A DNA stretch of 32,000 nucleotides from assembly GCF_051307035.1 (NCBI RefSeq), contig NZ_CP195536.1, positions 1,740,001 to 1,772,000 on the forward strand, given 5' to 3'. Below are positions 4,108 through 29,161 of the stretch, piece after piece (position 1 is the first letter of the stretch; each line of letters opens with the position of its first letter). A program made the translations under genes and the position numbers. This stretch comes from Psychrobacter sp. DM4. Its GTDB lineage: Bacteria > Pseudomonadota > Gammaproteobacteria > Pseudomonadales > Moraxellaceae. The notes beneath the pieces are model-generated. The model saw only the letters and a list, made by a program, of their open reading frames with translations, was not told the origin of the DNA and did no database searches.

Positions 4108-5487
4108 CTAAACTCGTTCTTTATCAATCAAATAAAGAATGGCTTCTGTTAACGCAAACTGACGAATATCGCCTAGCATAGTGGTATCAAAATTATGCAC
4201 ATAGGCAAACGATAATTGCCGTGATGGATCACACCAAGCGACCGAACCGTTGTAGCCCATGTGACCAAAACCAGCTTCAGTATCGGTACAGACGCTAAAC
4301 AGACGATGATAACCAAGACGCCATTTCATTACCGCAGGCATAACCGCGTCCATACCGTTTGACTGTACTGATGAGAGCTGCGTGAACGTTTGCTTGTTAA
4401 TGATTGTTTTGCCTTGCCATACCCCGCCATCAGCGAGCATCGCATAAATAGTCGCTAGTGCATCGGCTGAGGCAACGGCGTTGGCGGCGGGTATGATGGC
4501 TTGTAATACCTCATCAGTGTAGTAATTAATAGGCTGCATGTTAGAAGGCACTAACGCAGCTCTGTAGTTGTTGGCATTGATAGCGCTATGATCAAAATAT
4601 AAACGATTAATTTGATCGGTAGTTAATTTATCAGTCTTGGTTTGAGGATGTGCCGATACTGTCTCATTGTCAGACACCAACTGTTGCCAACAAGCATAGC
4701 TTGGCAAGCTCTCATAGGTCTCTAGCGTGCTTGGTGAGTCCACTTTCAATACAGGTTTATGACGTTTAGCGCCTAGTTGTGAGCTGCCTTGCTGTAATGG
4801 CTTAAAATCCTTGCCAAGTTTGGCAACTGTATGCACCTTGTCAGCGGGCACGCCAAAATAGCAGCTATCTGCTATGCCCAGTGGCTCTGTTAAATAATGG
4901 CGCAAAGCTTGCGCTAGCGTCATATTGGTAGCGGCTTCTATCAAACCGCCAAGCACCCAACCAAAGATCAAAGCGCTATAAGCACTCTCATATCTATCCG
5001 TATCATCACTAGCACTCTTATCACCTTGATCTGGATGAGTTGTCGGCATCGCTGCGACTTTTGCCAGCATAGCCTGCCAATCGATTAGCGTCTCGCTATT
5101 TGTCTCAATAGACGCAATTGCAAATAGATTGGCCTGATGCGATAGAACATCTCTTAGAGTAATATCGGCTTTGTTATTAGCCGCGAAATCTGACCAATAG
5201 CTAGCAATGGACGTATCGTAGTTTAGCAGTCCTTGTGAGACCAAGACATGAATCAGCGTCGCTAACACCCCTTTGCCTGTAGAAAAGTTCAGAGACAACG
5301 TATCGGACTGCCAAGGGGTCTCAAGCCGTGCCATACCGATACTAACTTTTGCGATGCACGCGCCTTTTTGATAGACGACCAACGAGCCGCCTACTGGTGC
5401 GTCGTTTAATTGTAAATCAGAAAGAACTTGCTCTAGGCGCTGTTGAAACTGAGTATCAATAGTAGTAGTGCTGTTAGCTTTGGTCAT
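4108..5487 (-). CDS. serine hydrolase, beta-lactamase/EstB-like family
   Basis: 459 aa. An S-x-x-K nucleophile motif (FSTGKGV) lies near the N-terminus. C-terminal GHMGYNGSVAWCDP resembles the GHxGxxGs box of PF00144-type proteins. Substrate is unknown. Confidence 0.8.
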   Translation of the reverse strand: MTKANSTTTIDTQFQQRLEQVLSDLQLNDAPVGGSLVVYQKGACIAKVSIGMARLETPWQSDTLSLNFSTGKGVLATLIHVLVSQGLLNYDTSIASYWSDFAANNKADITLRDVLSHQANLFAIASIETNSETLIDWQAMLAKVAAMPTTHPDQGDKSASDDTDRYESAYSALIFGWVLGGLIEAATNMTLAQALRHYLTEPLGIADSCYFGVPADKVHTVAKLGKDFKPLQQGSSQLGAKRHKPVLKVDSPSTLETYESLPSYACWQQLVSDNETVSAHPQTKTDKLTTDQINRLYFDHSAINANNYRAALVPSNMQPINYYTDEVLQAIIPAANAVASADALATIYAMLADGGVWQGKTIINKQTFTQLSSVQSNGMDAVMPAVMKWRLGYHRLFSVCTDTEAGFGHMGYNGSVAWCDPSRQLSFAYVHNFDTTMLGDIRQFALTEAILYLIDKERV

Positions 5488-7452: not shown

Positions 7453-8853
7453 TTAAGCACCTAATAAGCTTTGACCACATACGCGTACCGTATTACCGTT
7501 CAAACCGCCAGAGGCAGGCGAGGCAAACCAAGCGATAGTCTCAGCCACATCGACTGGCAGGCCACCTTGGCTCATTGAGTTCATACGGCGACCTGCTTCA
7601 CGAATAGCAAACGGAATAGCTTCTGTCATTTGCGTCTCAATGAATCCTGGCGCAACCGCATTGATCGTCATACCCTTGTCATTAGCATCTAACTGCTTGG
7701 CCGTTGAATTGACTAGGCCGATAACGCCAGCTTTTGAAGTCGCATAATTGGTCTGACCCATATTACCTGCGATCCCTGAGATTGACGAGACACAAACGAT
7801 ACGCGCATCATTCTTTAAGACATCATTATCAAGCAAGTAGCGATTGATTCTGGCAATACTACCTAAATTGATGTTGATGACCATATCCCACTTTTGCTCA
7901 TCCATATTAGCAAGCGTCTTATCACGAGTCACGCCAGCGTTATGAATGACAGCATCAAGTCCGCCACGTTTTTGCGCGGCTTCTGCAATCTCTTGACCTG
8001 CATCGTCACTAGTGATATCAACCGTTAGAACGGAACCACTAATCTCACTTGCGACCTTTTGCAAGTCCGCTTGCTGCTGCGGGACGTCTAGACAGATCAC
8101 GTGAGCGCCTTCACGAGCCAATACGCGTGCAATCGCTTCACCGATACCGCGACTAGCGCCTGTCACTAGCATCGTTTTGCCAGCAAGTGGCTGCGTCCAA
8201 TCGATATCAACCGCATTGCCTGCGCTGACACGAACGACCTGTCCTGAGACATAAGCTGAGCGTGCTGAAGTAAAGAAGCGCAAGGTTGACTCTAGATTAT
8301 CTTCAGCGCCCGCACTAACGTAAACAAGCTGCGCTGTAACACCGCGCTTAAACTCTTTGCCTACTGACTTAACGAAACCTTCAAGCGCACGCTGTGCCAA
8401 TGCGGTTTCGATATCATCGATAGATTCTGGCGGACGACCAATGATGATGACGCGACCTGATTTTTCTACGCGGCGTGCAACCGTATGGAAGAACTCATAA
8501 ACCGCTTTTAGACCCTCTGCGCTACTGATATTACTGGCATCAAATAACAATATTTTAAACTTATCTTCGCTACCAGTATTGGCTTTTGCTTCAATACCAG
8601 CGTCGGCGAGCACCTCTTTGATATCATCACTACTATTGACGAATACTTCAGCATGTAGCTCTGATAAGATACGGCCAATAGACGCGCTTACGCGGTTGTC
8701 TTCACCTGCAGCGGCGCCTACGAGCACGCTACCGCGCACTAAACGTTGACCACTCTCAAAACGATCAAGGGTCACAGGCTGCGGCAAACCAAGGTTTTTG
8801 GCTACTTTTTTACCTAGCGAAGATTGAACGAAATCACCATAACGGTCTGACAT
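7453..8853 (-). CDS. two-domain high-molecular-weight 3-oxoacyl-(ACP/CoA) reductase, FabG4-like SDR
   Basis: 466 aa. The C-terminal half is a classical SDR with LVTGASRGIGEAIARVLAREGAHV (TGxxxGxG) and the catalytic YATSKAGVIGL (YxxxK). The ~220-aa N-terminal extra domain matches FabG4-type enzymes. Confidence 0.9.
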   Translation of the reverse strand: MSDRYGDFVQSSLGKKVAKNLGLPQPVTLDRFESGQRLVRGSVLVGAAAGEDNRVSASIGRILSELHAEVFVNSSDDIKEVLADAGIEAKANTGSEDKFKILLFDASNISSAEGLKAVYEFFHTVARRVEKSGRVIIIGRPPESIDDIETALAQRALEGFVKSVGKEFKRGVTAQLVYVSAGAEDNLESTLRFFTSARSAYVSGQVVRVSAGNAVDIDWTQPLAGKTMLVTGASRGIGEAIARVLAREGAHVICLDVPQQQADLQKVASEISGSVLTVDITSDDAGQEIAEAAQKRGGLDAVIHNAGVTRDKTLANMDEQKWDMVININLGSIARINRYLLDNDVLKNDARIVCVSSISGIAGNMGQTNYATSKAGVIGLVNSTAKQLDANDKGMTINAVAPGFIETQMTEAIPFAIREAGRRMNSMSQGGLPVDVAETIAWFASPASGGLNGNTVRVCGQSLLGA

Positions 8854-9354: not shown

Positions 9355-11199
9355 ATGAGCGACAAAAAAGACAGCCCAATTGTTGAAAGCACCGTTGTAA
9401 AAGGCAACGCTACAACTGAAAAAACGATCGATAAAAACGCTTCTGCTAGCAAAGACACCGCAAAAGCGAATGATTCGGGATTCAACTCTATTGCTGATCT
9501 CAAGCAAGCGACCGATATTGTTGACGCTGATGGCAAACCTGTAAACGATCAAGCCAAAAGCGACGACGCTGAGAAGAAAGCTAAAATCAAAGCCGATATA
9601 GCTCTCGAAAACGTTGAGGCTGAAGAAGCCAAATCAAAGGTAGCTTCATCTACTCAAAGCAAGGAAGCACCAAAGGCTAAGAGCGAATCTAAAGCTGACA
9701 CCAAATCAGAAGCTAAAGCAAGTAGTAAGCCTGATACTAAATCAGATAATAAATCTACTGCTAAGCCAAAAACTGAAGACAAAATGGGTAGCAAGGCTGA
9801 GTCAAAGCCAGCTGCTAACACCAAAAAAGACGACAAAGCTGTTGATACCAAAACGATTTCAGCTAGCAAACAGACAAGTGCTAAGCCTAAGAAAAAGTCC
9901 AATGCTACGTTAAGCTCTAATCAGCAACGCGTTGCGGTCATCGGTGGTAACCGTATCCCATTTGCACGCTCTAACGGTACTTATGCTGATGCTAGTAACA
10001 CTGACATGCTAACCGCTGCCTTGAACGGTTTGATCGAGCGTTTTGATTTGCAAGACGAAGTATTAGGCGAAGTCGTCGCAGGCGCAGTCATGAAACTTAG
10101 CCGCGATATTAACTTAACTCGCGAATCAGTACTCAATACTGCGTTGGATCCACACACGCCATCGTACGATATCTCGCAAGCTTGCGGTACTGGACTTCAA
10201 GCCACTTTTGCCTCAGCGAACAAAATTGCATTAGGTCTTATTGATTCTGCTATCGTTGGTGGTGTAGATACTACCTCAGACGCGCCTATCGCTATTGGTG
10301 ATGGTCTACGTAAAGTCATAATCAAATTGGGCGCCGCCAAAAACAATAAGCAGCGTCTAAAAGCACTTATGGGTCTCAACCCTAAAGACTTAATCGATGC
10401 GCCGCAAAATGGCGAGCCACGTACAGGTCTGTCTATGGGCGAGCATCAAGCGATTACTGCGCTTGAGTGGAACGTCAGCCGTGAAGCTCAAGATGAGCTG
10501 GCCTTTAACAGCCATCAGAACCTTGCTCGCGCTTATGACGACGGCTTCTTTGACGATCTACTCACCCCGTACAAAGGTCTGACTCGTGATAACAACTTGC
10601 GTCCGGATACTACTCTAGAAAAACTAGCTAAACTCAAACCTGTGTTTGGCAAAAGAAATGCTAATCCTACGATGACTGCTGCCAATTCTACGCCGCTGAC
10701 TGATGGTGCCTCTTGTGTACTACTTGCGAACGATGAGTGGGCAAAAGAGCATGGTCTAAAGACTTTGGCTTATATTGTCCATCAAGAGACTGCTGCGGTT
10801 GACTTCATTGGCAAATCTGGTACGACCGAAGGTTTGCTCATGGCACCAGCGTACGCCGTACCGCGTATGCTTGAGCGTGCTGGTCTTACCTTACAAGACT
10901 TCGACTTCTATGAGATTCATGAAGCCTTTGCCTCGCAAGTCCTCTCAACGCTAGCGGCTTGGGAAGATGAGAGCTTCTGTAAAGAGCGCTTGGGTCTGGA
11001 TGCGCCACTAGGTTCAATCGATCGCAGCAAGCTCAACGTTAATGGTTCATCGCTTGCCGCCGGTCATCCGTTTGCTGCAACCGGTGGTCGTATCTTGGCT
11101 ACTGCTGCTAAACTGCTCGATCAAAAAGGTTCAGGTCGCGTACTTATCTCTATCTGCGCCGCTGGCGGTCAAGGTGTAACTTGTATCTTAGAGAAGTAG
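9355..11199 (+). CDS. acetyl-CoA C-acyltransferase (thiolase, FadA2-like) with ~189-aa Lys/Ser/Ala/Thr/Asp-rich N-terminal extension
   Basis: The thiolase core runs from about residue 190 (QRVAVIGGNRIPFARSNG). It includes the active-site Cys region ISQACGTGLQA, GSSLAAGHPFAATGGR and the C-terminal ICAAGGQG. GAGGA lies 7 nt upstream of ATG 9355. Confidence 0.92.
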   Translation: MSDKKDSPIVESTVVKGNATTEKTIDKNASASKDTAKANDSGFNSIADLKQATDIVDADGKPVNDQAKSDDAEKKAKIKADIALENVEAEEAKSKVASSTQSKEAPKAKSESKADTKSEAKASSKPDTKSDNKSTAKPKTEDKMGSKAESKPAANTKKDDKAVDTKTISASKQTSAKPKKKSNATLSSNQQRVAVIGGNRIPFARSNGTYADASNTDMLTAALNGLIERFDLQDEVLGEVVAGAVMKLSRDINLTRESVLNTALDPHTPSYDISQACGTGLQATFASANKIALGLIDSAIVGGVDTTSDAPIAIGDGLRKVIIKLGAAKNNKQRLKALMGLNPKDLIDAPQNGEPRTGLSMGEHQAITALEWNVSREAQDELAFNSHQNLARAYDDGFFDDLLTPYKGLTRDNNLRPDTTLEKLAKLKPVFGKRNANPTMTAANSTPLTDGASCVLLANDEWAKEHGLKTLAYIVHQETAAVDFIGKSGTTEGLLMAPAYAVPRMLERAGLTLQDFDFYEIHEAFASQVLSTLAAWEDESFCKERLGLDAPLGSIDRSKLNVNGSSLAAGHPFAATGGRILATAAKLLDQKGSGRVLISICAAGGQGVTCILEK

Positions 11200-19443: not shown

Positions 19444-20586
19444 CTAACGTTGCGCTTCTATATATTTGATAATGGCGGAAAGCTCATCTTGATTATGAAA
19501 CATAATCTCAACACTACCCTGTCCGTCTTTTTTATGTTTGAGTTTGACCTCAGCGCCTAACGCATCAGTCAAACGCTGAGTCAAACGCTGCGCATCATGA
19601 GCAGGCGACGGCTCAGTACGACCGGCTTTAGGCGTAGGGTTTAGGATAGATTTAACCAGTTTTTCGGCATCACGAACGGTCATATTACCATCGATAATCT
19701 TTTGCGCGATGATAGGCTGCTGCTCGGATGATAAGGCGAGCAAAGTGCGGGCATGACCCATATCAAGAGCGCTATTGGCGAGGTGGTCTTTGACGGTATC
19801 ATGCAATTGATTGAGCCGTAGCAAGTTTGATACCGTGGTACGTGCTTTGCCCACCACCTCTGCGATCATGGCATGGCTCATACCAAACTCGCTATGAAAG
19901 CGTTGCAAAGCGGCCGCTTGCTCAATGACAGATAAATCTTCGCGCTGAATATTTTCGATAAGCGCAAGTGCGATTGCTAGCTCATCAGATAGCGCGCGTT
20001 CTATCGCCGGAATGACAGTCTTACCTGCCATTTTTGCGGCGCGCCAGCGGCGTTCGCCCGCGATGATCTCGTGCGTAACCAAATCATTGCTTTTATTTTC
20101 AGTGGCGAGCAGTGGACGAATGACGATAGGCTGCATAATACCATGCTGCTCGATTGAAGATGCAAGCTCGGTCAACGCCGTCTCACTCATATCACGGCGC
20201 GGCTGGTACTTACCTGCTTGTAATAAACTGACCTCTATCTGTACTAAGCTGATTTGATCTTCAGTACCATTTTTATCTTTATAAGACTTGTTCGCAGTAC
20301 GCGGCGCACGACTATTAGTACTGCCAGTAGCGCTATTTTGTTTTGTACTGCCCTCTTTTGTACTGGTATTAACGAGTGATGTTTTTACCTTTTTACTACT
20401 TTTAGGCTCACTACTGGATTTGGACTCAGCAAGGGTTTGGGCAGTTGAGATATCCTCTGGCAAAGCACCATCACGCATGGCCATATCATCTTGTAAGGCG
20501 GTAGCGGTCATTTGCTTTTCTTTTTTGATTGACCCAAGTAAGGCATCAAGACCTCTATTGGCAGCCAATCCACGTTTCTTTGCCAT
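19444..20586 (-). CDS. parB: chromosome partitioning protein ParB
   Basis: It has the N-terminal MAKKRGLAANRGLDALLGS, ParB box IIAGERRWRAAKMAG and an HTH region. The ORF is open to GTG 20607, but ATG 20586 matches canonical ParB N-termini. A ~60-aa Ser/Thr/Lys-rich insert follows the N-terminal peptide. Confidence 0.94.
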   Translation of the reverse strand: MAKKRGLAANRGLDALLGSIKKEKQMTATALQDDMAMRDGALPEDISTAQTLAESKSSSEPKSSKKVKTSLVNTSTKEGSTKQNSATGSTNSRAPRTANKSYKDKNGTEDQISLVQIEVSLLQAGKYQPRRDMSETALTELASSIEQHGIMQPIVIRPLLATENKSNDLVTHEIIAGERRWRAAKMAGKTVIPAIERALSDELAIALALIENIQREDLSVIEQAAALQRFHSEFGMSHAMIAEVVGKARTTVSNLLRLNQLHDTVKDHLANSALDMGHARTLLALSSEQQPIIAQKIIDGNMTVRDAEKLVKSILNPTPKAGRTEPSPAHDAQRLTQRLTDALGAEVKLKHKKDGQGSVEIMFHNQDELSAIIKYIEAQR

Positions 20587-20787
20587 GATTCCCAATTCCT
20601 TTAACACTAAAATAAAAGCTCGATTATAACCGATAATAAATGAAAGCGACGTCTAATGACAGAAAAACGATGGCAATATTATTTACCAAGCGTTCATTTG
20701 ACTCAGCCAAAAAATGATTCAATCTTACAAAAAGGTGTCTTTAAAGAAGTCGATAAATAGTTACTTTTGCACACCAAAGTAGCGTAT

Positions 20788-21567
20788 TTATTTGCTTTGT
20801 TTAATGACTTCTGCGGCCAATTTTTGGTAAGCGCGCGAGCCTTTAGACCATTTCTCGTAGGCAATGACTGGCATGCCATGGGCAGGCGCTTCTGCTAAGC
20901 GCACATTTCTTGGGATATGAGTTTTGTACATAGTATCGCCAAAATGGGCTTCAAGCTCAGCCGATACATCGCGAGCCAAAGTATTTCGCGCATCAAACAG
21001 TGTTCTGACAACGCCTCGAATATACAGCGATGGGTTAAGCTCCGTTAAGCGCTCAATCGTTTGCGATAGATCAGCCAACCCCTCTAGCGCATAGTATTCA
21101 CATTGCATAGGAATGATGACCCCATCTGTTGCCACCAAAGCGTTAATAGTCAAAAGATTCAGACTTGGCGCGCAGTCCATTACCACATAGTCATAGGGTT
21201 TGCTTTGCGTCTTAGCTTGATGCTGAGTCAAAGCGGTCATCGCCGTCTTTAGCAGCTCATGACTGTTGGTCTGACCCATCAAAGTCGTATCCATACCCGC
21301 AAGCTCACGGTTAGCACCGATCACATCGAACCCTGCAGGACTTTTCACTCGTGCGTCTTGTAGCAATACGCCATCGAGCAAGACGTCGGTAATACTCAAT
21401 GCCAAATCGTTTTTGTCGAGACCTGTGCCAGAGGTTGCATTGCCTTGTGGATCTAAATCAATTAAAAGAACACGCTTGCGTTTGGCTGCAAGGCTTGCTG
21501 CCAGATTCACCGCTGTCGTCGTTTTGCCAACGCCACCTTTTTGATTCGCAATTGCTATGATTTCCAT
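20788..21567 (-). CDS. parA: chromosome partitioning ATPase ParA/Soj
   Basis: 259 aa. It has the deviant Walker A IANQKGGVGKTTTAVNLA, DLDPQGN and DCAPSL. Confidence 0.95.
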   Translation of the reverse strand: MEIIAIANQKGGVGKTTTAVNLAASLAAKRKRVLLIDLDPQGNATSGTGLDKNDLALSITDVLLDGVLLQDARVKSPAGFDVIGANRELAGMDTTLMGQTNSHELLKTAMTALTQHQAKTQSKPYDYVVMDCAPSLNLLTINALVATDGVIIPMQCEYYALEGLADLSQTIERLTELNPSLYIRGVVRTLFDARNTLARDVSAELEAHFGDTMYKTHIPRNVRLAEAPAHGMPVIAYEKWSKGSRAYQKLAAEVIKQSK

Positions 21568-21621
21568 AAACTCACTCGATATTATTAATATAGGTCTAGC
21601 AGATAAGGACTACTTTATAAA

Positions 21622-22353
21622 TTAAGTCTCTTTACGACTCATCTCAATTAAGTGCCGACTATCATGCAATCTAGGGACATTTAGCTTTATCGTCTTGATT
21701 TGCCATTCTTCTTCTAACGATTGCTTTTCCTGCTCTGTTGGCGATTTGCCTTTCATTGCACATAAGTGCCCGTTAGACTTTAGTCGTGGCTGCGCCGCTA
21801 GTACAAAATCATTTAAACTGGCAAAAGCGCGCGAAGTGACCACATCATAGTTAGCCTCATGCGCCTCAATTCGAGAGGCGATAGGCTGCACATTGCTAAG
21901 TCCAAGCTCACTACTAATTTGCTTAATAAAGCGTATCTTTTTTTGGTTGCTATCTAGAGCAGTGCAATGGCGCTCAGGCTCACAAATAGCAATAATGACC
22001 GCAGGTAGACCTGCTCCTGTACCGATATCGAGTAGGGTTCCTGCCGGCAGATGCGGAATAATCGCTAAGCAGTCGACGATGTGTTTGGTCAATGCCTCTA
22101 CTGGGTCAGTAATCGCCGTTAGGTTGTACGCTTTATTCCATAGTAAGAGCTTATCTAAGTACAATAATAGCGTGCGCTGTCTCGATGCGTCGAGGTTTAG
22201 TGTCAAATCTTTTACCGCCTCTGACAACATGTCTGCAAGTTTGGGTAATTGCGCGCCTATTTTGACAAAACCTGTGCTATCGAGTCCAGAAAAACCTTTA
22301 GGGTCATTCGATTTATGAGCGGGTTTAGTACTCGCATTTGGGGAGACTGACAT
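21622..22353 (-). CDS. rsmG: 16S rRNA (guanine527-N7)-methyltransferase RsmG (GidB)
   Basis: It has WNKAYNLTAI, the SAM-binding LLDIGTGAGLPAV and the DSNQKKIRF motif. The N-terminal 41 aa are extra relative to E. coli-type RsmG. The internal ATG at 22230 (MLSEAV...) is an alternative start. Confidence 0.9.
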   Translation of the reverse strand: MSVSPNASTKPAHKSNDPKGFSGLDSTGFVKIGAQLPKLADMLSEAVKDLTLNLDASRQRTLLLYLDKLLLWNKAYNLTAITDPVEALTKHIVDCLAIIPHLPAGTLLDIGTGAGLPAVIIAICEPERHCTALDSNQKKIRFIKQISSELGLSNVQPIASRIEAHEANYDVVTSRAFASLNDFVLAAQPRLKSNGHLCAMKGKSPTEQEKQSLEEEWQIKTIKLNVPRLHDSRHLIEMSRKET

Positions 22354-22666
22354 AAAACAATGCGTCCGATTTTGGCCTGTGAAACCTCTATTTTATCATG
22401 GGGTTTGCACGTTGAATAGTTTGAGATTGCGCTGATGTCCGTCATCTTATACTATCTTTGAGCGAAGTGATGCGTTATTCGTCTTTTCTGTCTTTTCATA
22501 AATGACATATAATGCCATCCTCTTGGTTTGTTATCAGTGCTGAGCGGTAGTCACTTGAGGAATCTGTTATGCTATGTCAAATTAATACTTAAACATAAAG
22601 ATACGCAAGTATCCTCTTAAAAGTCCTTGTCCATAATACCTATCATATGTCGCTATCTGCCCTGTC

Positions 22667-25573
22667 ATGGTGGATAAGCCCAATAATGAAGCCCAATACT
22701 TTATGACTCAAACTTTGATAAATGCTAACGACACCTTCGCGCCTAACGCAGATAATACAGAAGCTAAACCTGAGAGCTCAAGCACGCCGCATTCTGTATT
22801 TATCACTGTCAATAAACGCTGCTTGCTACGCTCTGAGCAGCTCAAACGCTACAGCAATCATAGAGTATTACCTAAGGACACGCGCGTGGCGCCGCCTTTG
22901 GATATCGGCTTTGGTCAGCAACGCGCGCTCAAAGCTTTGCGTACGGCGCTAGATATTCAGGCCAGTGGCTATCACGTATTTGCCGCAGGTGAGAATGGGC
23001 TGGGAAAACGTACTATCATTAGTCGCATATTGCAAGATAGTGCAGCTGGCGTGCCCACTCCTGATGACTGGGTCTATGTGCATAACTTCTCAGATCCGCG
23101 CACCCCTATTGCGCTGACAATGCCCGCAGGTCAAGCACCCATCCTACAACAGCAAATCAATACATTGTGGCAACAAGCAAAAAAGCGCTTGAGTCAACGC
23201 TTTCGTAGTGATCAGTATCAGAGCCAGATTGAAGCGATAAAAAACGACGCCCACGCGCAAGAGAGCCAAGCCTATGAGGCGTTAAATGCTGAAGGCAAGC
23301 AGTATGATTTGGCACTGACTTTTCGTCCCTCTGACAACAAAGCGGTGTTTGTGCATCCTAGTCAATTGGCGACAGAAACCTCTCTTAGTCATACTGACTC
23401 AAGTACTCCTAACTCAAACGCTACACTAGGTCAGTCAAAGACTGATATGAACTTAGATGTCAACACTCATGTACCTATGAGAGATTCTCAGTCAAACAGT
23501 ACTGTTAACGATAAAGAGTCTACAGCGTCAACTGATGAGAGTCAGTCTGAGGATTACAACAACACGCGGCGTAATTTTGCACAAAAAAACCATATGCATA
23601 AGCGGCTTAGTCAATTGACCATTGCTCTTGAGCAACTAGAAGACGATGCCAATGATGCCATAGAAACCATGCATCGCGATATCGCCACGCGTACGCTTGA
23701 GTCTTTATTTACACCCATCAAAAAGCAATTCGAGACGCTGCCCGCAGTGAGCACTTATCTGACAGCGATGTTCACTGATATGGTCAGCCATGTTGAGCGT
23801 ATCGTGAACGCAGATGATGAAGAGTTTGTGGCCGCTATCCTTGCCACGACGCCGAGCCGCTATGCGGTAAACGTTATGGTCACCCATACCCCTAATAGCG
23901 GCGCGCCCGTAGTATTTGAGGATCTGCCGACGCACCTTAATCTATTGGGTCATGTTGAACAGATCACCCAGTTAGGTACAGTCACGACTGATGTCAGTAT
24001 GATTCGAGCCGGTGCCCTACACCGTGCCAATGGGGGTTATTTGCTACTTGAGGCTAGCCACGTCCTTGAGCATCCTTATGCGTGGCAAGGGCTTAAGCGC
24101 GCTTTACAATCGCGTAAAATTAAACTCTCAAGCTTGGAGCAAATGCTAACCTTGACAGGGAGTTTGTCACTTGCACCTATGCCTATAGATCTGAACGTAA
24201 AGGTTATCTTACTGGGTGAGGCCGATCTTTATTATGAGCTGTTAGAATTAGAGCCTGAGTTCGATGCGGTATTCAAAGTCCGCGCTGATTTTCATGACGA
24301 CGTTATGCGCACCCACGAGCACGAATTGGCTCTCGTTGCCAAGATGGCAGACATCATCGAATACGCAGAGCTTTATCCTTTTGATAGTAGCGCGCAAGCC
24401 GCTTTACTTGAGCACTTGAGCTTACAAGCTGAAGAACAAGATCGCCTAAGCCTACATAGTGATCGTCTGATTAAATTACTCCATGAGTCCAACCGTCATG
24501 CGCGCCTAAATAATGAGAATATCGTTGATGCCACGCACGTAACCAATGCTATAGCCGATATGGATGAGCGCTCAGGCTACTTACGGGATCTATACTGGGA
24601 TGAGCTCAAAAACGGTCAGCAGCTCATCAAGACTCAAGGTCAGGCAGTCGGTCAGGTCAATGCTCTCACCGTCGTCAGCTACGCCGATAGCGAATTTGGT
24701 ATGCCGGCGCGTCTAACTGCGGTTATCCAGCCTAATATTGGCACAGGTGAGATTTTGGATATTGAGCGAGATGTCGACTTAGGCGGTAGCTTGCACGCCA
24801 AAGGTATGCTCATCATGACCAGCTACTTGCGGGCATTGTTTAGTCAGCATCATGCGTTAAATTTTAGCGCCTCGCTCGCTTTTGAGCAAAGTTACGCACA
24901 TATCGATGGCGATAGTGCGACCGTTAGTGAAGCCTGCGCGCTCCTATCTGCTCTAGCTAATGTCCCGATCAATCAAGCGCTGGCAATCACAGGCTCAATG
25001 AATCAGCTGGGTGAAGTACAGGCCGTTGGCGGTATCAATGCCAAGATTGCAGGGTTCTTTGATGCTTGCCGCGAGCAGACGTTGACGGGACAACAAGGCG
25101 TGGTCATCCCTATGGCAAACGTACAGCAGCTTATGCTTCGCGACGATATTATCGAAGCGGTTGAAAACAAACAGTTCTCCATCTACGGCGTTCATACGAT
25201 CGGTGAGGCCTTGACCCTCATGACAGGCTTGCCTATCGATACGCTCAACAAGAAGAAACGCTATCGCAAAGAGACCTTATTTGGCAAAGTATTGCAGCGT
25301 CTTATGCTATGGGATGAAAACCAAGACGACGATAATACTGAAGATAAGGCATCAAAAAAAACATCAAAAAAGAAAGCTGAGCAAAAAGCAAAAAAGCAAA
25401 AAGCAAAGCAGACGCTTAAAAAAGAGGAACGCCAAAAAAACGAGCAGCAGACTAAACGAAAAGATACGCAAGTAAAAGAGACAAATGAGATGCTGTTGAG
25501 ACAAAATAGTTCAGATAATGACTATTTAGAAAGTAACAACTTAAAGGGCAACAACTTAGAGAGTAATGATTAG
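22667..25573 (+). CDS. Lon-like ATP-dependent protease, YcbZ/LonH (AAA_32 + Lon_C) family
   Basis: 968 aa. It has IGFGQQRALKAL followed by Walker A GENGLGKRT. The C-terminal Lon S16 domain has FEQSYAHIDGDSATVSEACALLSALANVPINQALAITGS (catalytic Ser) and GGINAKIAGF (catalytic Lys). A S/T/N/D-rich insert spans about residues 231-300. A Lys-rich tail starts at residue 884. Confidence 0.88.
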   Translation: MVDKPNNEAQYFMTQTLINANDTFAPNADNTEAKPESSSTPHSVFITVNKRCLLRSEQLKRYSNHRVLPKDTRVAPPLDIGFGQQRALKALRTALDIQASGYHVFAAGENGLGKRTIISRILQDSAAGVPTPDDWVYVHNFSDPRTPIALTMPAGQAPILQQQINTLWQQAKKRLSQRFRSDQYQSQIEAIKNDAHAQESQAYEALNAEGKQYDLALTFRPSDNKAVFVHPSQLATETSLSHTDSSTPNSNATLGQSKTDMNLDVNTHVPMRDSQSNSTVNDKESTASTDESQSEDYNNTRRNFAQKNHMHKRLSQLTIALEQLEDDANDAIETMHRDIATRTLESLFTPIKKQFETLPAVSTYLTAMFTDMVSHVERIVNADDEEFVAAILATTPSRYAVNVMVTHTPNSGAPVVFEDLPTHLNLLGHVEQITQLGTVTTDVSMIRAGALHRANGGYLLLEASHVLEHPYAWQGLKRALQSRKIKLSSLEQMLTLTGSLSLAPMPIDLNVKVILLGEADLYYELLELEPEFDAVFKVRADFHDDVMRTHEHELALVAKMADIIEYAELYPFDSSAQAALLEHLSLQAEEQDRLSLHSDRLIKLLHESNRHARLNNENIVDATHVTNAIADMDERSGYLRDLYWDELKNGQQLIKTQGQAVGQVNALTVVSYADSEFGMPARLTAVIQPNIGTGEILDIERDVDLGGSLHAKGMLIMTSYLRALFSQHHALNFSASLAFEQSYAHIDGDSATVSEACALLSALANVPINQALAITGSMNQLGEVQAVGGINAKIAGFFDACREQTLTGQQGVVIPMANVQQLMLRDDIIEAVENKQFSIYGVHTIGEALTLMTGLPIDTLNKKKRYRKETLFGKVLQRLMLWDENQDDDNTEDKASKKTSKKKAEQKAKKQKAKQTLKKEERQKNEQQTKRKDTQVKETNEMLLRQNSSDNDYLESNNLKGNNLESND

Positions 25574-25613
25574 AGCAAACGAACGATACTTCTACTATTG
25601 TGGAGTAACTCTG

Positions 25614-25682
25614 TCAATGTCATTTAGAATCAATGTCATTTAGAATCAATGTCATTTAGAATCAATGTCATTTAAAATCAAT
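25614..25682. repeat. 16-bp tandem repeat, 4.3 copies (TCAATGTCATTTAGAA)
   Basis: Three identical units at 25614-25661 are followed by one unit with a single G>A change (25662-25677) and a 5-nt partial unit. Each unit contains the small palindrome AATGtCATT. Confidence 0.95.
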
Positions 25683-25727
25683 ATTATATAGACCCTAGAC
25701 GCTCCAACTGTTTTCTGCGATGATAAA

Positions 25728-25819
25728 TAGATTCGCCCGTTTATCTTCGATACCATATTTTGTAGCAACTGATAGTACCCGCTTAAGGGTATTGACTCCA
25801 CCTAATGATAAGACTTATC
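25728..25819 (+). promoter_or_regulatory. two GATAA-type inverted repeats in the WYL-regulator promoter/leader region (candidate operators)
   Basis: CGATGATAAA (25728-25737) and TTTATCTTCG (25750-25759) form 10-bp arms matching 9/10. The perfect 13-bp palindrome GATAAGaCTTATC (25807-25819) ends 19 nt before ATG 25839. A TTGACT hexamer lies at about 25790. Confidence 0.35.
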
Positions 25820-25838
25820 CCACAAAAGGTATTTAGCA

Positions 25839-26951
25839 ATGACTGTATCTCAGACTGATAGCCTGCCAACCGATACCAAAGCCATTGCGACAAATAATAG
25901 TAAAGAGAGTGCTGATAGTCGCCATGGCGCGGCAACCACAGCGCGCCAATGGCAGGTGCTCTCGCAGCTCCAACGTAATCGCTGGGTGGGTACTACGCAT
26001 GTGTACGAGCAGTTGGTGCTAGCAGGGTTTGATATTAGTCTACGTACGGTACAAAGAGACTTAAATGCCCTAGCAAAACGTTTTCCTATAGAAAAAAACA
26101 ATGCCAACCCGCAAGGCTGGCGATGGCGTGATGATGCTCCGCTCCAAAGCTTACCGCATATGAATCTATCGCAGGCCGTCGCCTTTAATATGGTTGAGGC
26201 CAATCTCACCCAGCTACTCCCGCCTGCTATTTTAGACGAGCTGTTTCCTTGGTTTGATTTGGCGCGGCGTCAGCTAAAAAATAGCAAGGTTACCCACTCT
26301 TGGATAGATCGCGTGCGTATCGAGCCTGCCACTCAGCCTTTGATCGCACCGCACGTTGATCTAGAGAGCAAAGACAACATTTATCATGCGCTGTTCTACC
26401 AGCTTCAGATACAGGCTTGTTATACCCGTAGTAATAAATCAGAGGCGAGCGAATACATCCTTAACCCTATTGCTATTATTCAGCGCGGCGTCATTATCTA
26501 TATGCTCGCCACTCGTACTGATGACCCTGAGATGATCATTCGCACTTTTGCTCTACATCGGTTCGAGAGCGTTGAGATATTAGATACCCCATCCGTAACA
26601 CCAGAGGGTTTTGAGCTTGACCGCTACCTTGACGCAGGTGGTATGGGCTTTACGCATCATCTACTAAGCCAGCTGCCAGATCATGGCAAAAACACGGCAG
26701 TCGAGCTATGCTTTAGCAAAAGAGCAGGAAAAAGCTTGACTGAAAGTAAGCTGAGCGAAGATCAAACGGTGATAGATAACGATGATGATACTTTGACCAT
26801 AACCGCAACGGTCAATCTGACCTCACAATTGGTCTGGTGGCTACGCGGTTTTGGTAAAGGACTTATTAGCGCCAAACCAGAGCTGCTCTATGAGGCAGTA
26901 CTCAACAAAGCCTCTAAAGACACTCAAGACCTGAGCAAACAAACCCTCTAA
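25839..26951 (+). CDS. HTH + WYL domain transcriptional regulator (YafY/BrxR/CapW-like architecture)
   Basis: 370 aa. The N-terminal winged HTH is WQVLSQLQRNRWVGTTHVYEQLVLAGFDISLRTVQRDLNALAKRF. The central WYL-like segment is IQACYTRSNKSEASEYILNPIAIIQRGVIIYMLATRTDDPEMIIRTFALHRFESVEIL. A further C-terminal domain follows. AAGG lies 9 nt upstream of the ATG. Confidence 0.78.
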   Translation: MTVSQTDSLPTDTKAIATNNSKESADSRHGAATTARQWQVLSQLQRNRWVGTTHVYEQLVLAGFDISLRTVQRDLNALAKRFPIEKNNANPQGWRWRDDAPLQSLPHMNLSQAVAFNMVEANLTQLLPPAILDELFPWFDLARRQLKNSKVTHSWIDRVRIEPATQPLIAPHVDLESKDNIYHALFYQLQIQACYTRSNKSEASEYILNPIAIIQRGVIIYMLATRTDDPEMIIRTFALHRFESVEILDTPSVTPEGFELDRYLDAGGMGFTHHLLSQLPDHGKNTAVELCFSKRAGKSLTESKLSEDQTVIDNDDDTLTITATVNLTSQLVWWLRGFGKGLISAKPELLYEAVLNKASKDTQDLSKQTL

Positions 26952-26977
26952 TAAGACAACTCTAATAAAGGATAACT

Positions 26978-27646
26978 ATGTCCCCCTCTGCCCCTTACCC
27001 CCAAGTCAAAGCTCCTATTCTCTCGGACAGCCTGAGTGCGTTAGGGTTAAGCGCCAAGACATTGTTTTTTGCTTTAAATTATGAATTTACCGAGATTGAA
27101 CCTACAGGATTACTCAAGCGCTTCAAAAAAGACCAAGGCGCTATAGATCTCGATATCGCCTGTGTACTATACGACAAGCACTGTACTATTGATGATATCG
27201 TTTGGTTCAAGCAGTTACGTGATAAAGCTGAGTCGGTAAGGCATCAAGGAGATAGTCTCAACAGCAAAGATCGAGGCGATCAGTCTTTGTACCGTGCGCC
27301 GCTCGACCAAGAGCAGATTCGCCTCTCTCTAGTTGATATCCCAGAACATATCGAGCATATCGCGATGTTGGTCAGCTCTTATCATGGTCATCCTTTAGGC
27401 AAGCTCAATGCGGGTGAAGTGCACTTGAGTGATGATGAAGGCAATCGCGCTTTTGAGGTCAACCTAAGACAGTCTCCTCGCGATTGTAGCGCGGTATGGA
27501 TAGCCAGTATGCGCCGCGGTATCGACGACTGGCAGCTGACTTTACAAAATCTACCTTTGAATGAGCATGACATATCTAAAGCAGCTCAACTTGTAGCGCA
27601 CGAGCTTGCCCGTGTACTACCCATGCCGCAAGCTATCAGCAGCTAG
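26978..27646 (+). CDS. divergent TerD-domain (TerD/TerZ/CABP1 family) protein
   Basis: 222 aa. The pattern is collinear with TerD: DLDIACVLYD, IVWFKQL, SVRHQGDS, DQEQIRLSLVDIPEHIEHIAMLV, GEVHLSDDEGNRAFEVNL and AVWIASMRRGIDDWQL. AAGGA lies 5 nt upstream of the ATG. The start is 26 nt after the WYL gene stop. Confidence 0.62.
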   Translation: MSPSAPYPQVKAPILSDSLSALGLSAKTLFFALNYEFTEIEPTGLLKRFKKDQGAIDLDIACVLYDKHCTIDDIVWFKQLRDKAESVRHQGDSLNSKDRGDQSLYRAPLDQEQIRLSLVDIPEHIEHIAMLVSSYHGHPLGKLNAGEVHLSDDEGNRAFEVNLRQSPRDCSAVWIASMRRGIDDWQLTLQNLPLNEHDISKAAQLVAHELARVLPMPQAISS

Positions 27647-27655
27647 CCACTTAAC

Positions 27656-27703
27656 GTGAACATAAATCTTGGTGAATATAAGTTTTAGTGAACATATAAC
27701 TTA
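27656..27703. repeat. degenerate 16-bp tandem repeat, 3 copies (GTGAAYATA...)
   Basis: The units are GTGAACATAAATCTTG, GTGAATATAAGTTTTA and GTGAACATATAACTTA, at exact 16-nt spacing with 11-13/16 pairwise identity. The array starts 10 nt after the TerD-like stop. Confidence 0.6.
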
Positions 27704-27714
27704 CGTATCACTAT

Positions 27715-27752
27715 AAAAAAGGGGCGAGACTGTTTAGCATCTCACCCCTTTT
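27715..27752. terminator. bidirectional rho-independent terminator between convergent TerD-like and K+ channel genes
   Basis: A6 is followed by the stem GGGGCGAGA / TCTCACCCC (one C-A mismatch, 10-nt loop) and then T4. It reads as a hairpin plus U-tract on both strands. Confidence 0.7.
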
Positions 27753-27772
27753 ATGCAAATATATTTAAACTT

Positions 27773-28933: not shown

Positions 28934-29161
28934 TTAATAAGAGACTGTGTAATAAAAATAAACTAAGACCAATAATACAATCACCGTCATTATCAAAATA
29001 GCCTGTAAGACACGGTGATCAATACGTAGGTTACGGCTGACATCCTTTGCAGGTATCAAGGATAAGCCGCAATCAGGACAGTAGTTATCAGACTGATTGA
29101 GCGAAGTCATATCATAAGCATTTTTACAGCGAAGTGGGGAGTTACTACAGTATCCAATCAT
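28934..29161 (-). CDS. putative zinc-ribbon miniprotein with C-terminal transmembrane helix
   Basis: 75 aa. It has four Cys (C5, C12, then CPDC at 28-31) and a C-terminal hydrophobic helix AILIMTVIVLLVLVYFYY. The SD is weak or distant (AAGGGG 13 nt upstream), so coding status is uncertain. Confidence 0.4.
   Translation of the reverse strand: MIGYCSNSPLRCKNAYDMTSLNQSDNYCPDCGLSLIPAKDVSRNLRIDHRVLQAILIMTVIVLLVLVYFYYTVSY

Follow-up and report, generated by a model that had tools for sequence, protein, structure and literature searches.

A conserved pair of the DNA-damage regulator gene ddaA and a TerD-like gene in Psychrobacter and Moraxella

A 32,000-nucleotide stretch of the Psychrobacter sp. 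DM4 genome (contig NZ_CP195536.1, positions 1,740,001 to 1,772,000; hereafter the window) contains two adjacent genes, whose products are a 370-residue WYL-domain regulator and a divergent, single-domain TerD-fold protein of 222 residues. The two genes form a conserved, co-oriented and terminator-free unit, and the regulator is the orthologue of the DNA-damage response activator DdaA. We consider it rather probable that the pair constitutes a core two-gene operon of the Psychrobacter/Moraxella branch, in which the second gene would encode an accessory cation- or ligand-binding partner. DdaA has been described before, and its partner carries the existing annotation 'TerD family protein'; what appears to be unreported is that the two are linked in a conserved, operon-like manner in Psychrobacter and Moraxella but not in Acinetobacter, and that a TerD Ca2+ loop has been remodelled. 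Both open reading frames had been singled out by an earlier note, made by a model from the DNA letters and a list of their reading frames, and they lie exactly where the note placed them.

The regulator and the conservation of the gene pair

The assignment of WYL and TerD domains to the two products was borne out by profile searches. In the 370-residue protein, Pfam detects WYL at residues 179-247 (1.2e-8) and WCX at residues 287-358 (3.3e-6), with a weak DeoR-type helix-turn-helix (HTH_DeoR) at residues 60-86; in the 222-residue protein it detects TerD (47.1 bits). DdaA is an activator of the DNA-damage response with the architecture wHTH-WYL-WCX (wHTH, winged helix-turn-helix), which replaced LexA/SOS in the Moraxellaceae, binds CGWCA-N5-TGWCG and responds to single-stranded DNA (ssDNA) (Song 2025, Ellison 2026; PMC12392091, PMC13010146). 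In tblastn searches the window regulator finds exactly one match on each of three A. baumannii chromosomes (45.5-45.6% identity, 97% coverage, E 2e-99), and its blastp alignment to the 335-residue A. baumannii protein has 47% identity over 335 residues (E 2e-114). The latter carries R47, R51, Y173 and Y200, the residues whose function was established in the recognition helix (R47, R51) and the WYL domain (Y173, Y200) of A. baylyi DdaA (PMC13010146), together with the motif FALHRF; because this match is unique and has all of these features, the window gene is filed here as a ddaA orthologue.

The key residues of the window protein are R69, R73, Y195, Y221 and A238, of which R69/R73 are the counterparts of R47/R51 and Y195/Y221 those of Y173/Y200; the Moraxella-like WYL partners, proteins of 39.2-39.9 kDa, have R48, R52, Y174 and Y200. 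In addition, the first ssDNA-contact arginine, located on strand β4, is an alanine in the regulator, so that FALHRF lies opposite WRLDRM of DriD. A238 is invariant in both regulator alignments (A3 and A4) and is also found in A. baumannii DdaA, and Song et al., who place the DriD family next to DdaA, give the Arg-to-Ala change at the first ssDNA-contact position as DdaA-specific. DriD entries were the only relatives recovered by a PDB profile search with the regulator (7U02, 7TZV, 8TP8, 9CU3 and 9PFQ; E 0.03-0.14), which returned no entry for CapW, BrxR or PafBC. A direct phmmer search of the PDB gave no match, PADLOC reported generic CRISPR-associated WYL models only, and NCBIfam had no match for the regulator or for the TerD-like protein.

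Published DdaA from A. radioresistens has 334 residues (38.7 kDa), and the P. aquimaris homologue is 45% identical to it (preprint), a value that the window protein matches in its comparison with A. baumannii; the window protein bears a 22-residue low-complexity N-terminal tail. The homologue of P. aquimaris KCTC 12254 is reported to bind the canonical Acinetobacter DdaA box in an electrophoretic mobility shift assay, and in Acinetobacter DdaA also activates restriction-modification (RM) and CRISPR-Cas genes. The earlier note had regarded the WYL protein as a dedicated local regulator of an undescribed module; this view gives way to its identity as an orthologue of an already described global activator (PMC12392091, PMC13010146).

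The three A. baumannii chromosomes used for this comparison were found inside the plasmid collection PLSDB. The records concerned, NZ_CP077849.1, NZ_CP104448.1 and NZ_CP064203.1 (L119), are whole chromosomes of 3.7-4.1 Mb that are labelled as plasmids and almost unannotated, a trap for plasmid statistics.

Conservation of the pair was assessed in relatives from a scan of one genome per species, which yielded 127; the best 80 of these, all Psychrobacter or Psychrobacter-like metagenome-assembled genomes, are the 80 loci to which the counts refer. In 79 of 80 Psychrobacter species the gene immediately following ddaA is the TerD-like one, and a terminator-like hairpin between the two genes is found in none of the 80 loci (0/80). 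Synteny extends to the surroundings (Lon-like protease gene 79/80, WYL gene 79/80, K+ channel gene 78/80, aceF 74/80), and since the whole neighbourhood is syntenic in Psychrobacter, co-occurrence within the genus is uninformative by itself. In Moraxella-like loci the WYL gene is again directly upstream of the TerD-like gene and on the same strand, with all flanks different: the pair lies between TonB-receptor/HmuY and diacylglycerol kinase (DAGK) genes, between those for RecJ and isocitrate dehydrogenase (IDH), between ExbD on one side and DAGK plus a histidine kinase on the other, or after a Cu-oxidase_4 gene. Overall, the pair is kept in at least five flanking contexts, that of Psychrobacter and at least four Moraxella-like ones. 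A metagenome scan added 25 further Moraxella-like loci, and the WYL gene is present in all 23 that have enough upstream sequence.

Given a gene order that survives changes of the flanks and the lack of an intervening terminator, the two genes do constitute a real, conserved unit, as had been supposed from its appearance in the window and as its at least five sets of flanking genes attest; co-transcription of the two genes is likely. Of the two things to be looked for among neighbourhoods of homologues, conserved WYL pairing was found (79/80 Psychrobacter species, 23/23 metagenome loci), whereas location in defence islands was not, the surroundings being core chromosome with housekeeping neighbours. 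The partner appears specific to the Psychrobacter/Moraxella branch, because ddaA of A. baumannii has mnmG as a neighbour and no TerD-like gene in the surrounding 5 kb, and because the plasmid collection, three A. baumannii chromosomes included, holds no match covering at least 80% of the TerD-like query. Each gene also occurs without the other, so that the link is not obligatory.

Fold, calcium sites and evolution of the TerD-like protein

The Pfam TerD match (PF02342) spans residues 51-187 of the 222-residue protein, with an E-value of 2.4e-12 and a score well above the cut-off of 25.3 bits, and a profile of the protein aligns weakly with the solved structures 3IBZ (E 1e-4) and 2KXT (E 3e-3). 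When the AlphaFold model of the protein, of only moderate quality (pLDDT 57), was compared with known structures by Foldseek, all six matches at E<=1e-3 had the TerD fold (3IBZ, 2KXT, 9A6R_B, 2QNG, 2QZ7; target-normalised TM-scores 0.54-0.64). AlphaFold2 secondary structure places a C-terminal helix at about residues 196-213, and no signal peptide or membrane segment was seen by reading the sequence.

The published Ca2+ ligands of K. pneumoniae TerD (site 1: residues 40, 41, 42, 78, 79 and 89; site 2: residues 29, 82, 84 and 88, of which 29 was left unmapped) were transferred to the window protein through the profile alignment. As far as ligand equivalents can tell, this shows Ca2+ site 1 to be retained and site 2 to be lost or remodelled. 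The site 1 equivalents are D57, L58, D59, D92, S93 and E112, so that five of the six ligands are kept and an Asn is replaced by Ser; except for residue 58 (I/L/V), these positions are invariant in 23 Psychrobacter sequences (alignment A1). At site 2, the acidic ligand D88 is replaced by Q111, which is itself invariant. HQGDSLNG...DQEQI of the TerD-like protein aligns opposite HTGDNxTGEGxGDDEQI with a 9-residue insertion, in keeping with the altered Ca2+ signatures and the insertion of about 10 residues previously noticed (profile alignment to 3IBZ/2KXT). The Ca2 loop (residues 93-109) is 17 residues long in Psychrobacter, against 8 in K. pneumoniae TerD, and its length ranges from 8 to 42 among Moraxella-like members.

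An exhaustive profile search delineated a distinct, full-length TerD-like subfamily, represented by 26 clusters at E<=1e-30 and well apart from ordinary TerD, whose named distant members are all Moraxella. Its proteins evolve about twice as fast as DdaA: identities for the TerD-like protein and DdaA, respectively, are 66-88% versus 79-92% within Psychrobacter, 30-35% versus 58-63% between the window and Moraxella-like loci, and 43-48% versus 75-79% among Moraxella-like lineages. On plasmids and phages there are no close relatives, only canonical TerD proteins at less than 31% identity, and PADLOC has no match for the protein. Canonical ter clusters are found elsewhere in Psychrobacter genomes (PMC5822837), so that the TerD-like protein is not the only TerD-family protein of the cell; 'a variant of terZ' that a 2018 paper placed on a separate contig is probably the gene described here.

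Many of the Moraxella-like TerD-like proteins (P0132, P0134, P0138, P0140, P0145 and P0148; e.g. L085:7001-8056) are extended at the N-terminus by 60-160 residues of low complexity. Two short motifs, roughly vYStLLDdsPi and hKsExLTDxxILxqSxQ, are conserved in these extensions; the Psychrobacter proteins lack both, which may be linear interaction motifs. At another locus (L092:954-3049), a lone TerD-like open reading frame overlaps the 3' end of a phosphoribosyltransferase gene by ~50 nt and is followed by a gene for an N6/N4 DNA methyltransferase; phosphoribosyltransferases are recurrent components of Ter systems (Iyer et al. 2021).

Regulatory DNA and the interpretation of the pair

The sole strongly conserved non-coding stretch upstream of ddaA is a promoter-like block (Table 1), whose 10-mers TTCTGCGATG and CTGCGATGAT are found in 66/80 loci. 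Not called by a simple scanner, it would represent a sigma-70 promoter with a start near 25731. Within the pair, the intercistronic spacer of the window has the expected length of 26 nt and AAGGA, five bases before the ATG; in other species it measures 11-252 nt (median 97), is A/T-rich and always keeps AAGGA, and no conserved promoter block was seen in it. A bidirectional terminator had also been proposed to follow the pair, and a hairpin at 27721-27748 of -18.5 kcal/mol (RNAfold) agrees with it; a strict scan calls the minus strand. Terminator-like sites lie 3' of the TerD-like gene on the minus strand in 55/78 loci and on the plus strand in 25/78.

The two 16-bp arrays that were said to bracket the unit fared unevenly. 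The first is a nearly perfect repeat and the second a weak one (98% and 80% matches), and both are strain-specific, being not conserved in the 80 related loci, on which ground they were rejected as operators or boundaries. Short tandem repeats occur in the spacers of 29/79 loci upstream of the pair and of 11/78 downstream, with unrelated units and periods of 8-34 bp. These spacer positions seem prone to repeat formation, their sequences not being conserved, and the array upstream of ddaA probably has no functional part in the unit.

Neither an exact nor a relaxed DdaA box was found in any spacer around the pair in the 80 loci, nor a palindromic operator upstream of ddaA or of the TerD-like gene; the window contains no regulon gene with a DdaA box, and in 79 loci the 300 nt preceding the TerD-like gene contain no box with at most one mismatch. 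With no such site upstream of either gene, control of the TerD gene by the WYL protein, as put forward in the earlier note, was not confirmed, and both DdaA autoregulation and DdaA control of the TerD-like gene were rejected. This absence agrees with the published loss of DdaA self-regulation in Acinetobacter, Moraxella and Psychrobacter and with a ddaA mRNA level that is unchanged after UV (Song et al.). Boxes with two mismatches upstream of the TerD-like gene number 38 versus 19 expected, about twice background; these matches are not independent, because their sequence and position vary between clades and recur within close relatives. A one-mismatch box upstream of ddaA (13 versus 1.3 expected) was also rejected, as it lies inside the lon 3' end, in a single clade and ~186 nt from the -10. 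Closely related Psychrobacter species of one clade (L034, L044, L046, L049, L050, L052, L053, L058, L061 and L063) have a near-perfect DdaA-like palindrome, AGACAACAGCTGTCG, 31 nt before the lon stop (~position 4502), likewise ~186 nt upstream of the -10; it is absent from the window.

In the operon reading that we favour, DdaA would act as in Acinetobacter, that is as a homodimeric activator that is switched on allosterically by ssDNA bound to its WYL domain and that, once activated, would take the place of LexA/SOS in turning on genes for DNA repair and some for defence. Once the lineage had separated from Acinetobacter, the gene for a TerD-like β-sandwich would have been recruited to the position directly downstream of ddaA, where it would have stayed through repeated rearrangement of the flanks. 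Both genes would be co-transcribed from the sigma-70-like promoter, presumably constitutively, as is the case for A. baumannii ddaA. With a shared constitutive ddaA promoter, synthesis of the TerD-like protein would keep pace with that of DdaA and not depend on induction by it, and such parallel production would favour an accessory role over that of a damage-induced or anti-phage effector. The TerD-like protein may then be a cytosolic binder of a cation or small ligand that acts via protein contacts, tuning the DdaA response or adding an input to it, with the variable Ca2 loop and the C-terminal helix as likely interaction surfaces; a precedent for a TerD-family protein as a protein-binding partner is the GlpD-SCP2 model 9A6R, which is among the fold matches. 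A more specific proposal, which we regard as unlikely and advance tentatively, is that the TerD-like protein is a physical partner of DdaA, namely a lineage-specific co-regulator that would bind the DdaA dimer via the variable loop and C-terminal helix and gate or tune its ssDNA-triggered activation by Ca2+ or a nucleotide-like ligand. If true, this would be the first case in which a protein of the TerD fold cooperates with a WYL transcription factor, and the SOS-replacement pathway in Psychrobacter and Moraxella would have an additional layer of control.

Several observations weigh against the operon with an accessory partner, and some of them speak for two neighbours without shared function, of which the TerD-like gene would have its own promoter in the spacer and an unrelated role in stress or Ca2+ homeostasis, its adjacency to ddaA persisting by inertia. 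With the Psychrobacter neighbourhood syntenic throughout, only the Moraxella-like loci count for linkage, and at three loci, those of M. macacae, M. marmotae and one metagenome contig, the TerD-like gene has persisted by itself, without any WYL gene in the surrounding 7 kb. DdaA works in Acinetobacter without a TerD-like partner (PMC13010146), and the rates at which the two proteins evolve differ greatly. The spacer, rich in A/T and in most species about 100 nt in length (median 97, up to 252), could contain an internal promoter. Moreover, both structure predictions are weak (TerD-like protein, pLDDT 57; regulator, 39), and a 'TerD' from a P. frigidicola chaperone pull-down was rejected as evidence of expression, being a canonical TerD of 20 kDa and pI 4.4. 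A chance association of this kind is nonetheless doubtful, although it is the most serious of the alternatives: order, orientation and adjacency are kept in at least five contexts with all flanks changed, at a TerD-like identity of 30-35%; the genes are not separated by a terminator in 80/80 loci; and the Shine-Dalgarno sequence of the spacer is conserved, yet no conserved promoter block is seen there.

The absence of boxes bears on two further explanations. According to the earlier note, a CapW/BrxR-like WYL repressor or sensor would control a minimal TerD effector against phage, tellurite and colicins, as an undescribed defence module. WYL regulators are indeed often encoded upstream of the systems that they control (PMC9122601, PMC11662680), ter operons have been connected with resistance to phage, colicins and tellurite, and Acinetobacter DdaA itself activates RM and CRISPR-Cas genes; this module is nevertheless highly unlikely, since the regulator is the global activator DdaA, outside the CapW/BrxR clade, no operator or DdaA box lies near either gene, both are core, syntenic genes near oriC among housekeeping genes, and the TerD-like protein has neither a PADLOC match nor close plasmid or phage relatives. 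Alternatively, the TerD-like gene could be a damage-induced member of the DdaA regulon, through a degenerate or Psychrobacter-specific site in the ddaA 3' end or the spacer. The twofold excess of two-mismatch boxes upstream of it (38 versus 19) would fit such a site, but these matches are clade-variable and non-independent, no box with at most one mismatch exists in the 79 loci, and a very different Psychrobacter site is not expected, because P. aquimaris DdaA binds the canonical Acinetobacter box; this explanation, too, we consider very improbable indeed.

DdaA was described in 2025-2026, in a family with major pathogens and radiation- or cold-tolerant species, and functional work so far has all been in Acinetobacter. 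A gene locked to ddaA throughout Psychrobacter and much of Moraxella suggests a lineage-specific accessory component of the pathway, and if this is so, what was learnt in Acinetobacter may not apply as it stands to Moraxella. The poorly understood TerD fold also gains a new, experimentally tractable context, a single-domain protein outside a ter operon in which one Ca2+ site is kept and one lost. Should the linkage be neutral, what is left is still a useful correction, with no new defence system. The pair is mainly a lead for those who study the TerD fold or how Moraxellaceae respond to DNA damage.

Genomic setting and comparison with known systems

The window is core Psychrobacter chromosome near oriC, with housekeeping neighbours, and is no defence island; its closest protein matches all come from Psychrobacter. 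Its genes include ilvD, a Na+/H+ exchanger gene, holB, kdsB, lpxK, msbA, exbBD, parB, parA and rsmG, and the order around the pair is rsmG, Lon-like protease, ddaA and the TerD-like gene, K+ channel, aceF and aceE (Table 1). No defence gene, and no ter gene other than the TerD-like one, was found in these 32 kb, as the earlier note had said of ter genes; nor is there clustering with TerC, TerB, TerA, TerZ or TerE genes, either in the window or in the 12-kb loci of relatives.

Table 1. Features of the ddaA/TerD-like unit and of neighbouring DNA, in window coordinates
Feature	Coordinates	Strand	Remarks
ddaA orthologue (wHTH-WYL-WCX, 370 aa)	25839-26951	+	Pfam WYL and WCX; orthology with A. baumannii
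Divergent single-domain TerD-fold protein (222 aa, 24.9 kDa, pI 5.6)	26978-27646	+	Pfam TerD; profile matches 3IBZ/2KXT; Foldseek
Intercistronic spacer, 26 nt	26952-26977	+	Shine-Dalgarno AAGGA at 26968-26972; without terminator
Promoter-like block	25696-25724	+	-35-like TAGACG (25696-25701), 17-nt spacer, extended -10 TGcGATGAT (25716-25724)
16-bp tandem array, TCAATGTCATTTAGAA x4.3	25614-25682	.	lon-ddaA spacer; Tandem Repeats Finder (TRF), 98% matches
Weak 16-bp repeat, 2.6 copies	27656-27696	.	80% matches
Bidirectional intrinsic terminator	27714-27753	.	A-run, stem GGGGCGAGA / TCTCACCCC, T-run; shared with convergent K+ channel gene
Lon-like protease, 968 aa	22667-25573	+	LonB-type AAA, LonC helical domain, S16 protease domain
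75-aa open reading frame	28934-29161	-	CxxC...CxxC zinc-ribbon-like N-terminus, hydrophobic C-terminal segment; no Pfam match
Thiolase and short-chain dehydrogenase	9355-11199 and 7453-8853	+ and -	N-terminal extensions of ~190-225 residues without Pfam match

The Lon-like protease gene, whose product contains a long insert of low complexity and ends in a tail of ~120 residues that is very rich in lysine, lies directly upstream of ddaA in 79/80 Psychrobacter species and not in Moraxella-like loci; it was rejected as a third member of the unit because it adjoins the pair in Psychrobacter only, and PADLOC has no match for it. The 75-residue open reading frame between the K+ channel gene and aceF keeps its position in 77/80 Psychrobacter loci, at 39-79% identity. 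An origin-proximal location of ddaA is common to both genera: in A. baumannii its neighbour is mnmG (gidA) (L119:5037-8311), and in the Psychrobacter window rsmG (gidB)-parA-parB lie two genes from ddaA (19444-26951). These shared neighbours may be a remnant of an ancestral position near oriC.

Among known systems, the closest to the window regulator is DdaA itself (A. baylyi ACIAD2439; A. radioresistens A0A7U9PMQ2), which has the same wHTH-WYL-WCX architecture, DNA-contact arginines, ssDNA-contact tyrosines and β4 Arg-to-Ala change; like the promoters reported for these genera, that of the window ddaA lacks a DdaA box. It differs in that ddaA is followed by a TerD-like gene in Psychrobacter and Moraxella and not in Acinetobacter, and in the extra N-terminal tail of the Psychrobacter protein; TerD is not mentioned in either DdaA paper (PMC12392091, PMC13010146). 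DriD of Caulobacter crescentus, an ssDNA-activated WYL regulator of an SOS-independent damage response, recognises a similar reported motif (CGAC-N7-GTCG) and matches the window protein over the C-terminus of WYL and WCX. Its sequence match is, however, very weak (E 0.03-0.14), it keeps the first arginine (WRLDRM) and it has no known TerD-like partner.

TerD of terZABCDE (K. pneumoniae 2KXT/2KXV; Streptomyces 3IBZ) shares with the window protein the Pfam domain, the β-sandwich and five of six Ca1 ligands, at an identity of 14-15% by structural alignment and ~29% in the best tblastn segments. In the window protein, unlike in canonical TerD, a 9-residue insert interrupts the 13-residue GDNxTGEGDGDDE motif and Gln stands in for the Ca2 ligand D88; there is an additional helix at the C-terminus, the acidity is lower (pI 5.6 versus ~4.4), and the gene lies outside a ter cluster, without TerC, TerB or TerA neighbours, and is paired with a transcription factor. 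CapW and BrxR belong to the same three-domain class as the window regulator and are likewise encoded upstream of a co-oriented gene. They are repressors of another clade and gave no PDB profile match, whereas the orthologue of the window gene is an activator, and the window gene has no downstream defence system, lacks a palindromic operator and lies outside a variable island. Finally, a conceptual precedent from the same bacterial family, with unrelated folds and cited here as a lead only, is provided by UmuDAb-DdrR of Acinetobacter, in which a DNA-damage regulator works with a small, genus-specific co-regulator encoded beside it.

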